From the IMG/VR virus record IMGVR_UViG_3300037400_005963, positions 64,001 through 128,000 of that record: DNA of 64,000 bases; one strand, written 5' to 3'. Position 1 is the stretch's first letter. The number at the start of each line of letters is the position of its first letter. This stretch comes from a virus. Taxonomy: Duplodnaviria > Caudoviricetes. This document shows positions 55,837-64,000 of the stretch, in pieces. The notes beneath the pieces were generated by a model that saw nothing but the letters and a program-made list of their open reading frames with translations, was not told where the DNA came from and did not search any database. A program made the translations under genes and the position numbers.

Positions 55837-55929
55837 GTCTTTAAATTTTTGTTATCTTATTTATATATATAAGGGGATATCGGGCTAAATTATTTTTCCG
55901 TCCATATTTAACATAATACCCTTATATAT

Positions 55930-56917
55930 AGATAGATAAGTATATTAATATTTATCTGATCCACGTATCTGAAACGAATGATACTAACTTATATAAGCAT
56001 ACTAAAGGTGACTTGCGGGAACTTATATAAGGACAGCTGATTAAGGTGGAAATCAGGTTCGTTTGGGCGAACAGAAAATAGGCAAGTGCGTATAAAGAAT
56101 TTAGTTATGGAGAATTATACGTATAGGCCCAAAGCGTTAAAGGTTATGGAGACAAATTATTAGAGGCCCAGAATGCAACTAAACAATTATATTTATATAT
56201 GTTGCATAGGGCTTTATATAAAAATAAATAAATAAAAATAAACAGTTAAATTCGGAGAGAATTTAACATCGGCAATATGCGAAGAGGTGAAGAACTTCTT
56301 AGTGCAGTGCCAAAACCGAAGTAACTTAGATATCTAGGTGAACTTTGAAATGAGATTGATGAATTAACTGTATTATTCACTTTCTCAGAGTAGGAGGTCG
56401 GCGATATTTAGGGAGAAGAAATACAGCTTCTTATTATAGGAGAGTCTATATAGATCGAAGAGATACTTGCGAGGCCTATAATTAAATATCACAAATCCCA
56501 AGGAGAGAAACCTTAGGTAATATAAACTTTTATGAGACAATAACAAAAAAAAAACAATAACTATGAAAAATTTTAAACTTTACCAAGCGATTTGCTTGGT
56601 GCTGATGGCGGTATTTTATATTGCCGCAGTGTGGTCACATAATGAAGTGGCTACAAATATTGATTTAGCCCTTTTCGGGGCTTCATTCGCAGGCGTAATT
56701 ACCTGCCAAATCCTCAAATATAAAAAGAGGATTTCTTAAAAAAAACAACGGGTCTCCATACGTAAGTGTGGGGCCCGTATCTTAACAACCTTTATAACAC
56801 GTAACCTAAGAGGAATAAAATAACTTTTAGAACACAGGATTACCGGAGAGCGCTGCTCAAGACCGGTGCTCCCGCCCGTGTGAAGATATTGATACATTTA
56901 CTGTATCTTTATTTTTT
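55930..56917 (+). ncRNA. Large structured RNA candidate (~990 nt) with an embedded small ORF
   Basis: Promoter 55920-55930; 630 nt without an ORF but with many hairpins and pseudoknot-compatible pairings; terminator-like end 56891-56917. Confidence 0.6.
56563..56739 (+). CDS. 58-aa two-helix membrane protein (not in track)
   Basis: MKNFKLYQAICLVLMAVFYIAAVW...LALFGASFAGVITCQILKYKKRIS; strong A-rich start context. Confidence 0.6.
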   Translation: MKNFKLYQAICLVLMAVFYIAAVWSHNEVATNIDLALFGASFAGVITCQILKYKKRIS

Positions 56918-56975
56918 CAGTTTTCTAAGTACTTACTCCCTTATAATTGTAGAATTATAAAAATAATAATATATA

Positions 56976-60336: not shown

Positions 60337-61272
60337 TCATTCATAGATATATTTCCCGTCTAAGAGATTATAAATATCGATATAATCTATTCCAACAATT
60401 TTTGCAGCCCTTATATCACGATCTGATAATCCCCACCGTCCTGAGTGAACCCCTATGTATACAACTTCATCGGGATTACACACAATATTTCCCGGCTTAT
60501 TAGGATCTTCAAGAACACTACTTAGAATTCTATCCTTGGGTGTATGTTGCTGCATCTGTTTCAAAACATGACAATCACCTAATGGAATTCTAAGATAAGT
60601 TGTTATACTACATACTATATATTCTAGTGCTACTCTCGCTAAATATTTATCACCTAAGCCTGGCACTAATTCATTCGAGGGAAATATTATATATACTTTC
60701 TCTGGATTGAAGCTAGCTATTTTTTCCCAGACCTTAAAATTTGGTTTCAGGTCAAACATAGCTCTCGGCAACAATCCAGGTTTTCCATTCGAGTCATAAG
60801 ATTCTACTAAACAATCTAAAGCATCGCATACTACAATACGTTTTCTTTTATTATTGATAGTATAATCTATTTTTTGCTGACTCTGATAATTGTTTCCAGT
60901 ATTTCCACTTCCCCAGGGAGTACTTGGTTGATTATTACTCCCACTTCCACTACTTCCCCAACTTGACCAGGAAGGTGTAGATTGACTTTGCGATTTTTGC
61001 TGCTGTTCCCATGGGGCTAATCCGCTACTATTTCCGGAACCAAACCTAGAACCACTATTAAATGACGGTGTAAAAGGTGCATCCATTTTTATTGTTGTAC
61101 TTATATTTTCTTGATGTTGTTGATTATTTAATATTGCCTCAATTCTTGCATCCTCATCGGATTCATTAGTCTCTTCAATTTCCTCCAATGGATCATCATC
61201 TTCTGGATGTCCAGTATAATCTGGTGGAATCAAATTATCATTCTCTTCTTCAATCTTGTTCGTTCTTTCCAT
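60337..61272 (-). CDS. Disordered N-terminus + degenerate HAD (PNK 3'-phosphatase-like) domain
   Basis: VVCDALDCL and YIGVHSGR...SDRDIRAA..VGI.Y resemble HAD motifs I and IV. Confidence 0.55.
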   Translation of the reverse strand: MERTNKIEEENDNLIPPDYTGHPEDDDPLEEIEETNESDEDARIEAILNNQQHQENISTTIKMDAPFTPSFNSGSRFGSGNSSGLAPWEQQQKSQSQSTPSWSSWGSSGSGSNNQPSTPWGSGNTGNNYQSQQKIDYTINNKRKRIVVCDALDCLVESYDSNGKPGLLPRAMFDLKPNFKVWEKIASFNPEKVYIIFPSNELVPGLGDKYLARVALEYIVCSITTYLRIPLGDCHVLKQMQQHTPKDRILSSVLEDPNKPGNIVCNPDEVVYIGVHSGRWGLSDRDIRAAKIVGIDYIDIYNLLDGKYIYE

Positions 61273-61836: not shown

Positions 61837-62391
61837 ATGAAATATAAAGTTTTAGAAAAATTAAAGTCTATACCGTATAGTGATAATCAAGTAGATATGC
61901 TAGAGACTTTATTTGATATTGATCCAAGTCTTCATAAAAGATATGAAGATATTCTGCAGAAACTTTATCAAAGCTGGGTAGATTTCGGAAACGACTGGGA
62001 TAAGAAATATGATGCACTTATGGAGGAAATAAAAAACAGTCATTGGGAAAATACTAGAAATCAGCTATATGATGCATTAGACCATCAGTTTTCACGAGAT
62101 CCAAAAATAGTGACAGCAGAGTATCTAACTGGACTTAAAAATACTGGAGATCTATATTTATCCAGTAATATCACGCTGAGAAAAACTGATGAACCTAATA
62201 AGTACGTTTTAGATACCGAACTAAAATTTAGAGAAATAGTTTCGGATGATAATGGTGCTCTTATTGGAATCGATTTTCTCGGAATAATATTCATTACAAT
62301 TGGTTTTAAGTTTATGGGGAAATTTCTAGAAAAACTAGAAAAAATAGAAAATACTATTTACTTTAAGTTTATTGATGACGATGACAGATAA
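61837..62391 (+). CDS. Hypothetical protein
   Basis: Promoter 61806. Confidence 0.65.
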   Translation: MKYKVLEKLKSIPYSDNQVDMLETLFDIDPSLHKRYEDILQKLYQSWVDFGNDWDKKYDALMEEIKNSHWENTRNQLYDALDHQFSRDPKIVTAEYLTGLKNTGDLYLSSNITLRKTDEPNKYVLDTELKFREIVSDDNGALIGIDFLGIIFITIGFKFMGKFLEKLEKIENTIYFKFIDDDDR

Positions 62392-62941
62392 AAAAAATTA
62401 TAGTAAGTTGGGACAGAAGTTAGCTTATCTTCTAAGACATGATACTAATTATGAATTTCCTTCAGAGGGCTGGAGGGAATCGGACGACCTAATAAAGAAT
62501 CATGGTTTTACTTTAGAGGACCTTAAGGAAATAGTGAGAAATGATAATAAAGGTCGTTTCGAGTGGAAAGATGGAACCTATACCGGTATTCGTGCAATTC
62601 AAGGACATAGCATCAGTAAAATTAGAATAAAATATCCTCGAACTGATCCACCTGAAGTTTTATACCACGGCACTAAAGTATCTAATCTAGAAAGTATTTT
62701 TGCTGGTGGTATAAGCAGTATGGAAAGGTTATATGTTCATCTATCTGATAACCCCGAAACTGCATTTAAAGTGGCCAACAGAAAAAATAAAACCAGAAAA
62801 ATATCTGGACCTGGGATTGTTTTAGAAGTAGATGCAAAGAAGATGATTTCTGAAGGATATGCATTCTATCTAACTTCTAATGGAGTTTGGTTAACGAGAT
62901 TTGTACCGAGTAAATTTATAAAAATTTTAACAACAGAATAA
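62381..62941 (+). CDS. kptA: RNA 2'-phosphotransferase (Tpt1/KptA family)
   Basis: LLRH, KGRF, IRAIQGHS, LYHGT, R.YVHLS, NGVWL. Confidence 0.9.
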   Translation: MTDKKNYSKLGQKLAYLLRHDTNYEFPSEGWRESDDLIKNHGFTLEDLKEIVRNDNKGRFEWKDGTYTGIRAIQGHSISKIRIKYPRTDPPEVLYHGTKVSNLESIFAGGISSMERLYVHLSDNPETAFKVANRKNKTRKISGPGIVLEVDAKKMISEGYAFYLTSNGVWLTRFVPSKFIKILTTE

Positions 62942-62943
62942 TT

Positions 62944-63294
62944 ATGATACAATCGAAAGAATTAACGCTAGGCTGTACAATTTTAGTCGACGGAATAGAA
63001 TATCAAGTAAATTCCTTACCTTTACCTAAAGAAATTGAGGAGAAGGCAGAGGGAATACCTATAACGAGAGAACTTCTTCTTGAAATGGGTTACGAAGACA
63101 AGAAAAATGATGTCATTGAGGATGAACTTGAATTAGATCTCCCCAGTGGAAATTTTGCAACAGTCTTTAAATTCAAGGATGACGAAGATTGGGTACTCCA
63201 TTTAGATGATAAATTTAGGATGTCATTAGGTGGAAGAAGTTGGTTGAAGTATTATCATGAAATTCAAGCGCTCCTATCACTCCTAGATAAATAA
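62944..63294 (+). CDS. Paralog family B protein (divergent)
   Basis: EL.LG...GIPIT.ELL..MG...YHEIQ. Confidence 0.6.
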   Translation: MIQSKELTLGCTILVDGIEYQVNSLPLPKEIEEKAEGIPITRELLLEMGYEDKKNDVIEDELELDLPSGNFATVFKFKDDEDWVLHLDDKFRMSLGGRSWLKYYHEIQALLSLLDK

Positions 63295-63668
63295 TGGAAG
63301 AAAGAAAATTACTATCAGAATTCACCACAGAGGAATTAAGAAAGGAGTTAAGAAGGCGAAGAAAAAAGCCCACTTCAATTACCCCTAGGTGGTTAGAATG
63401 GAAAGGGGAGGTAATTAAAATTCACGAGTGGGGAAAATATAAACAATATACCTATACAGTGAAAACAGAAGATCCCCGAGTGCCAGACAAGGAGAAAACT
63501 CAAACCTATCCCATTAAACGAGGATGTATAAAAAAAGAATTCAGACCTAAAGTGGGAGATACCGTACTTCTTTCTCTAAGATATACAAAGAAAATGAAAG
63601 AGGGAAAACAGCCAATCTGGTGGGGACTTGGAAAAATTAAAGAAATAATAAAAAATAAGGAGGATTAA
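63294..63668 (+). CDS. Basic hypothetical protein
   Basis: TAATG coupling; terminator follows. Confidence 0.6.
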   Translation: MEERKLLSEFTTEELRKELRRRRKKPTSITPRWLEWKGEVIKIHEWGKYKQYTYTVKTEDPRVPDKEKTQTYPIKRGCIKKEFRPKVGDTVLLSLRYTKKMKEGKQPIWWGLGKIKEIIKNKED

Positions 63669-63731
63669 GTCCTCCTTTTTGTTCTGAAATATAAAAAAAT
63701 ATGGTTATTATCCCGAAAAATTCTTATACAT

Positions 63732-63911
63732 GAGCATGACTGAGTTTTTTGTTAATACTCTAGTGAAAGTTGTGGTACAATTTGCGAAAATTCATTCTCA
63801 TTCATAGTTGTAATAGATTTTTCATAATATAAAATTTGGTTAGGTTAATAATTGGTTTCTTTCTCAGTTAGTGGTTGTTAATGTTTTGTGTTGTTTTTCT
63901 CAGTCATGCTC
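63732..63911 (+). ncRNA. Clamped U-rich RNA with tandem anti-start-codon segments
   Basis: Promoter 63722-63732; perfect 13-bp ends GAGCATGACTGAG/CTCAGTCATGCTC starting at the predicted TSS; no ORF. Confidence 0.65.
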
Positions 63912-63923
63912 GATATTTAAAAC

Positions 63924-63965
63924 AAAATAAGGAGACTTTTTAGGTTCTCCTTATTTCTTTTTTTT
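63924..63965 (+). terminator. Intrinsic terminator
   Basis: AAATAAGGAGA/TCTCCTTATTT then a T-run. Confidence 0.75.
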
Positions 63966-64000
63966 ATTTTTCTATTAAGATGGGGAATAAGTTTCTACTG

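Follow-up and report, generated by a model that had tools for sequence, protein, structure and literature searches.

In Bacteroides, the small RNA GibS acts through unstructured seeds of 30–50 nt that pair around start codons (PMC7366714). GibS and other trans-acting sRNAs of B. thetaiotaomicron (PMC7366714) are stand-alone promoter-to-terminator units in a Bacteroidota-type expression setting, with long, weakly structured single strands that could pair around A-rich starts, and in these respects they resemble the phage RNA unit described here, the ends of which are held together by a long-range helix (the clamp). GibS differs in having a free 5' seed and a conserved sequence, whereas the 5' end of the clamped RNA is locked to a 3'-proximal arm, its interior is near-neutral and its gene belongs to a phage; the two have no sequence or Rfam relationship.

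Phage regulatory sRNAs, such as that of lambda, are likewise short, phage-encoded, non-coding transcripts, presumably acting on host or phage expression during infection. The lambda sRNA and other reviewed phage sRNAs are reportedly Hfq-dependent, enterobacterial and have mapped targets, whereas the clamped unit belongs to an uncultured jumbo phage of the gut whose promoters resemble those of Bacteroidota, and its closed-loop layout is unusual. To our knowledge, Bacteroidota hosts are without Hfq and mostly without Shine-Dalgarno pairing, and we know of no Hfq-type requirement for either the GibS-type sRNAs or the clamped unit. The small RNAs of Bacteroidota phages are almost unexplored, and the present case, from an uncultured jumbo phage, is an RNA gene supported by comparison. 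Its architecture is unusual, with a clamp that joins distant ends around an extended U-rich loop without structure, and makes it a tangible starting point for work on the handling of host RNA by such phages.

A terminal helix that joins both ends around a body of 100–200 nt is shared with Y RNA/YrlA, 6S RNA and the msr-msd RNA of retrons. The Y RNAs differ from the clamped unit, which lacks a tRNA-like module (no such element was detected by ARAGORN) and an Rfam match, and no Ro (TROVE) match was found in the viral record, which represents 42% of the genome. A 6S RNA was rejected because the unit does not form a rod with a central bubble and has no Rfam match. The perfectly paired 13-bp arms do correspond to the terminal inverted repeats (a1/a2) of retrons, but this assignment was also rejected, as there is no RVT_1 match in the 156.5-kb record (an incomplete genome), the neighbouring genes are not reverse transcriptases, and no stable msd hairpin is present. 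Searches of Rfam 15 at the gathering threshold gave no match in the window or in nine related loci, and permissive thresholds gave nothing relevant; the best sub-threshold matches fall on the upstream terminator. Within the same phage, the nearest likeness is to units of ~70 nt consisting of a promoter, a U-rich segment and a hairpin, which have the same promoter motif, U-rich and C-poor 5' segments with U-run and CAU words, their own terminators, and no ORFs. In these shorter units the 5' segment is free and the terminator loop is conserved, whereas the clamped unit is three times longer and carries the long-range clamp, and nhmmer detects no relationship between the two.

Layout of the clamped unit

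The window, i.e., the whole 64,000-nt stretch of DNA that was analysed, corresponds to bases 64001–128000 of a 156.5-kb viral record (35% G+C; estimated to be 42% complete). The clamped unit sits in a 306-nt gap that separates two convergent genes. On one side is a plus-strand operon that ends at 63668 and consists, according to the ORF list, of a 184-aa ORF, a gene for a Tpt1/KptA RNA 2'-phosphotransferase, a 116-aa ORF and, as its last gene, a 124-aa ORF (63294–63668). On the other side is the minus-strand gene for a BspA-type leucine-rich-repeat protein of 1239 aa, the 3' end of which occupies 63975–64000 and which continues beyond the window. Each side of the gap has its own terminator hairpin, neither assigned to a strand: that at 63657–63677, a 9-bp stem followed by a T run, closes the upstream operon, while that at 63925–63965 is an intrinsic terminator with a stem of about 11 bp, one bulge and a U tract, and also serves the convergent minus-strand gene.

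A promoter-like motif from the genome-wide motif list (TCCC, 8–10 nt, (C/T)CTTATA, 2 nt, TG) lies at 63711–63732 on the plus strand. In the copy at the unit (TCCC, about 9 nt, CTTATA, 2 nt, TG), the last base is also the first base of the clamp. About 25 further copies are found in the phage, 21–50 nt upstream of start codons. The motif is followed by the 5' arm of the clamp (63732–63744), a U-rich and C-poor interior (63745–63898), the 3' arm (63899–63911) and the intrinsic terminator. The arms form a perfect inverted repeat of 13 bp; the interior of 154 nt (U 49%, C 8%) is judged from its composition and fold z-scores to be weakly or not stably folded. These features bear out most of the layout given in the original prediction, made from the letters of the window: a perfect 13-bp stem enclosing ~155 nt of U-rich sequence and followed by a terminator, without a real ORF. 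The motif does end on the first clamp base, but the placement of the stem exactly at the start of transcription is no more than a prediction. By analogy with Bacteroidota -7 promoters, transcription could start at that base or as far as some 4 nt into the arm. The Bacteroidota -7 box is TAnnTTTG (PMC7366714) and the phage motif is similar to it; if the motif acts as such a box, about 4 nt of the arm may be left out of the transcript, and the clamp in the RNA would then be 9 bp, not 13.

In 1000 dinucleotide shuffles of the 306-nt gap, none reached a repeat of 13 bp, and the entire 156.5-kb record has only two perfect inverted repeats of at least 13 bp with a spacing of 60–300 nt. The other of these (57373–57385/57558–57570) is AT-rich and flanks an 83-codon minus-strand ORF. 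When the whole 180 nt are folded, the z-score is -3.9 and the clamp is present in both the MFE and centroid structures. Rich in G+U and poor in C, the plus strand has a folding energy of -42.5 kcal/mol, and the minus strand one of -25.2 kcal/mol. Two copies of a 9-nt word, which takes in the first bases of the 3' arm, are present in the RNA (63859–63867 and 63895–63903), and the 5' arm could alternatively pair with the internal copy over 6–7 bp; this copy is missing in the related lineages L038 and L015, and so is probably not a conserved switch.

Conservation of the clamp and drift of the interior

Relatives were metagenomic contigs reached through homologues of the 124-aa protein. The unit is present in five related metagenomic lineages, once per genome (nhmmer E-values of 1e-20 to 1e-36), with identities of the 124-aa protein to that of the window of 94% (L014), about 80% (L038 and L015) and 66% (L016/L020; L020, from a metagenome scan, is almost identical to L016). 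In every relative having the unit, it lies directly 3' of the 124-aa gene, even where the downstream gene is different. In each copy the promoter motif stands 3 nt ahead of the first arm and the second arm is followed by a terminator; the promoter-to-clamp distance is the same in L014, L015, L016/L020 and L038. The hairpin that closes the upstream operon is kept in L014, L015 and L038 but is missing from L016/L020, in which the promoter and the stop codon overlap; an equivalent of the terminator that follows the unit is present in L016/L020. Other searches returned no copies: near and distant DNA searches of the phage collection and an exact-pattern scan of viral contigs for the clamp were without a match, viral-contig scans guided by the 124-aa, Tpt1 and BspA-type proteins retrieved only distant or unrelated loci, and an nhmmer profile found no paralogues in the whole phage record or in any of the fetched loci.

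Two differences between lineages bear directly on the clamp. L015 and L038 share one compensatory change, from G-C to A-U, at arm position 11, and L016/L020 carry a perfect 12-bp arm pair of wholly different sequence at the same place and promoter distance, derived in part from about 24 extra nt on the 5' side. A compensatory change and different arms at one place indicate that it is the pairing that is selected, not the sequence of the arms. Judging from these comparisons, the end clamp is under selection and the unit is a genuine gene for a non-coding RNA that represents a new family. Two other origins were considered and rejected: a chance repeat, on the grounds of the compensatory change and the replaced arms, and a MITE or other small mobile element, as the unit is single copy, its flanks are without target-site duplication, and the arms vary at one fixed locus.

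The junction itself raises the question of a role in cis or at the level of DNA, where the unit would be a promoter-terminator insulator of the converging operons, or an inverted repeat recognised by a DNA-binding or recombination protein, and the RNA would have no role. In favour of this, the unit occupies the very point where the two operons converge, with a terminator on either side, its interior sequence is under almost no constraint, and the arm complementarity extends into the last base of the promoter, which may be absent from the RNA. We consider such a role improbable: the unrelated clamp of L016/L020 speaks against a sequence-specific DNA site, the strong strand asymmetry, like the dedicated promoter and terminator, is what one expects of a transcript, and the occurrence as a single copy without target-site duplication also argues against it. 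With its own phage-standard promoter motif and strong intrinsic terminator, the unit is, by all appearances, a stand-alone gene. It had been allowed at the outset that the region might prove to belong to a minus-strand gene, as its 5' UTR or a remnant; however, the minus-strand gene ends at 63975, which lies upstream of the unit when read along that gene, and in relatives this place is taken by other genes.

Conservation across the locus is uneven. Between the window and L015, the arms are 92% identical, with the compensatory change as the sole difference, and the spacer plus terminator are 95% identical (100% in L014), while the adjacent gene is 77% identical over all positions and 63% at third codon positions. 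The interior is 64.5% identical with 33 gap columns, so that it evolves at about the rate of third codon positions, and any seed must be short. Across homologues, the interior keeps its composition (U 47–51%, C 5–10%), its length class (123–154 nt) and short U-rich blocks flanking the arms. Among the four close relatives, only the U tracts beside both arms and a central U-rich block are invariant, and these blocks are not retained in L016. Relatives had been expected to keep the clamp and swap the interior; the clamp is indeed kept and the interior changed, but by scattered indels of 1–14 nt and near-neutral substitutions rather than by exchange of whole modules. For example, 7 nt are missing in L014 within one of the segments claimed to be anti-start, and 10–24 nt are missing elsewhere in L038 and L015. 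Without the arms, the interiors of five homologues are no more stable than shuffles on either strand (z from -1.1 to +1.6). RNAalifold proposed internal A-U/G-U helices between the arm-adjacent U tracts and internal A-rich stretches, and these were rejected because they show only one-sided A/G changes opposite U and were matched in 129 of 500 shuffle controls.

Short ORFs occur at the locus and could in principle specify a small protein. A plus-strand ORF of 25 codons (63730–63807, from the ORF list) overlaps the promoter and 5' arm, with its ATG right at the promoter, and plus-strand ORFs of 25, 31 and 16 codons are found in L014, L015 and L016, respectively; L015 also has a minus-strand ORF of 50 codons. 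However, the frames of the plus-strand ORFs differ relative to the common blocks, their lengths vary, their substitutions are mostly non-synonymous, and the minus-strand ORF is restricted to L015. A small-protein gene is therefore highly improbable and the 25-codon ORF was judged to be a non-gene; with no ORF conserved, the alignments indicate that the unit is non-coding.

Candidate modes of action

The original prediction had gone further, and interpreted the interior as an array of independent anti-start-codon segments in tandem, forming a multiplexed antisense RNA that is retargeted by swapping of its interior. The reverse complement does hold three ATG-centred A-rich stretches, and other short U-rich units of the phage bear similar U-run and CAU words. 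However, CAU is at chance frequency and is not conserved: there are 4 in the window interior against 2.3 expected (P = 0.14), and 4, 4, 3, 1 and 3 in the five interiors against 1.3–2.3 expected (all P at least 0.09), with one copy in L015. Exact complementarity to the phage genome extends to words of 13–14 nt at most, which equals the chance expectation. Two of the four longest words (13 nt) coincide with true start codons of the phage, at window 22342 and at genome position 8586, but a 13-nt match to a start region was also found in 12 of 60 shuffled RNAs.

Pairing was further assessed against 179 start regions of the phage (-25 to +15). Mean and minimum duplex energies and the counts of long helices were within or below the shuffle distributions, and the start regions paired no better than windows inside genes. 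The best single site, which scores -21.3 kcal/mol and precedes a 61-codon ORF at window 21167, was rejected as a target, since it was matched by 4 of 25 shuffles and the pairing segment of the RNA is deleted in L038 and L015. Duplex predictions against the flanking genes at seven loci revealed no recurrent local target. The reverse complement resembles start regions because the RNA is U-rich and the genome A-rich. With one segment partly deleted in L014, whose 124-aa protein is 94% identical, and with indels that are not module-sized, a guide array directed at start codons of the phage is not borne out, and the multiplexed reading as a whole is quite unlikely.

Tentatively, and well short of confidence, we favour a regulatory sRNA that acts in trans through its U-rich single strands, pairing with A-rich leaders. 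An independent promoter and terminator without a conserved ORF, as found here, is a feature of sRNAs as a class. The transcript would run from about 63732–63736 to about 63960, roughly 230 nt, with a helix of 12–13 bp between its predicted first bases and a site about 50 nt before its 3' end. The clamp would bury the 5' end, close the loop and stabilise an otherwise unstructured RNA. Acting in trans, with the conserved U tracts adjacent to the arms and the central U-rich block as the best candidates, the U-rich stretches may pair with the A-rich leaders and starts of mRNAs, in the way of long-seed Bacteroides sRNAs like GibS. Such pairing would probably be generic or aimed at host targets, and not a designed array of start-codon guides. 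An sRNA gene is supported by the clamp that no shuffle reproduced, the compensatory change, the replaced clamp, the gene-type promoter motif, and a terminator that is 95–100% identical against 64% for the interior. An RNA at the same position in a sister clade also counts in its favour, having the layout of a classical pairing sRNA, with a single-stranded leader and then a closing stem. Counted against pairing are the drift of the interior, CAU words that are neither enriched nor conserved, and a complementarity to the 179 start regions of the phage itself that does not rise above chance. We regard the unit as a solid new RNA family and not as a new mechanism; should the clamp stabilise an unstructured RNA, it might provide a scaffold for expressing antisense RNA in gut Bacteroidota.

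A drifting interior that retains its composition and its lack of stable fold would also suit a protein-binding or decoy RNA, in which the clamp presents a long, flexible, U-rich single strand to a single-stranded-RNA-binding protein, and composition and length matter rather than exact sequence. The partner could be the basic OB-fold protein encoded immediately upstream or a host factor, for instance S1 or an RRM protein. Protein-sequestering RNAs of the CsrB/RsmZ-like class display a short binding motif many times in single-stranded context; in the clamped RNA, the words GGUU, GUUA and GUUG are mildly over-represented (about 9–10 seen against 3–4 expected; GGUU/GUUA about 2.5-fold above shuffles; z about 3), an enrichment that is not robust and is lost on correction for 256 words.

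The 124-aa protein itself (pI 9.9) was modelled by AlphaFold2 (pLDDT 86) as an Arg/Lys-rich N-terminal helix and a five-stranded OB-fold barrel, with IF1, eIF1A, S17, RsgA and the OB domains of ligases as best fold matches. The scores are middling (Foldseek E about 0.02; VIA Z 7.0–7.8, i.e., below 8), and the list of OB matches also has domains that do not bind nucleic acids, such as those of baseplate spikes and proteasomal ATPases. As modelled, the protein fits an RNA-binding partner of the clamped RNA, and the unit stays beside its gene where the downstream gene differs, but this linkage may be no different from plain inherited gene order among related phages. Most stand-alone sRNAs of bacteria and phages act by base pairing, which also counts against a protein-binding role, and we hold that role to be rather unlikely; pairing with A-rich leaders is the most likely mode of action and is slightly favoured over it. 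A composite of the two is more doubtful still: the clamped loop would serve as a scaffold for about 150 nt of unstructured, fast-evolving U-rich RNA and, together with the upstream Arg-rich OB-fold protein, would form a phage ribonucleoprotein for the capture of A-rich translation-initiation regions, or of a host factor that binds single-stranded RNA, at an early stage of infection. If true, it would represent a host-takeover device specific to phages of Shine-Dalgarno-poor Bacteroidota.

Several other features of this gene neighbourhood were observed. A protein-atlas search with the 124-aa protein returned unnamed clusters only, and an identical protein is present on a contig of 202,678 bp, so that a longer assembly of the phage is public. 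The Tpt1/KptA gene (62372–62941, plus strand; Pfam E = 1e-36) is in the same operon as the 124-aa OB-fold gene, and no RtcB, RNA ligase or Ro (TROVE) genes that would explain a 2'-phosphate substrate were found in the 156.5-kb record (42% of the genome). A 311-aa protein (60337–61272, minus strand) has a low-complexity N-terminal half rich in Ser, Gly, Asn and Gln, and a C-terminal domain without Pfam or PHROG match.

RNA units at operon ends in related phages

In the sister clade of the 124-aa protein (L023–L030), a promoter overlaps the stop codon of the gene and is followed by an RNA of about 146 nt. Its 5' leader of 23 nt is invariant and single-stranded; its closing stem is long, carries compensatory changes and also serves as the terminator. 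The leader and the conserved 5' part of the clamped RNA have a short block in common, a similarity that is not significant. In L019, too, a long-range stem encloses about 130 nt, with a promoter before it and a terminator after it. The nhmmer profile of the family misses these positional analogues in L019 and L023–L030. At the ends of operons in this group of phages, short RNA units with a promoter and a terminator are evidently frequent.

More distant relatives carry the 124-aa gene family in an operon headed by a reverse transcriptase (RVT_1) of about 372 aa (L031:1–2231 and L034:1–1896), and this operon is followed by a promoter and an sRNA-like unit of about 100 nt that is different from the clamped RNA. 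The sister clade also has a conserved, ORF-poor stretch of about 400 nt (L023:2430–2850, L025:2440–2860 and L029:2215–2640) that is promoter-driven, contains many complementary blocks, and is without an Rfam match; its counterpart may be the long non-coding region at window 55900–56950. In the P0004 lineage (L017:1165–1460 and L018:1290–1590), the gap after the 124-aa gene contains a promoter motif on the opposite strand, which is predicted to yield a U-rich RNA of about 190 nt running back to the terminator of the gene.
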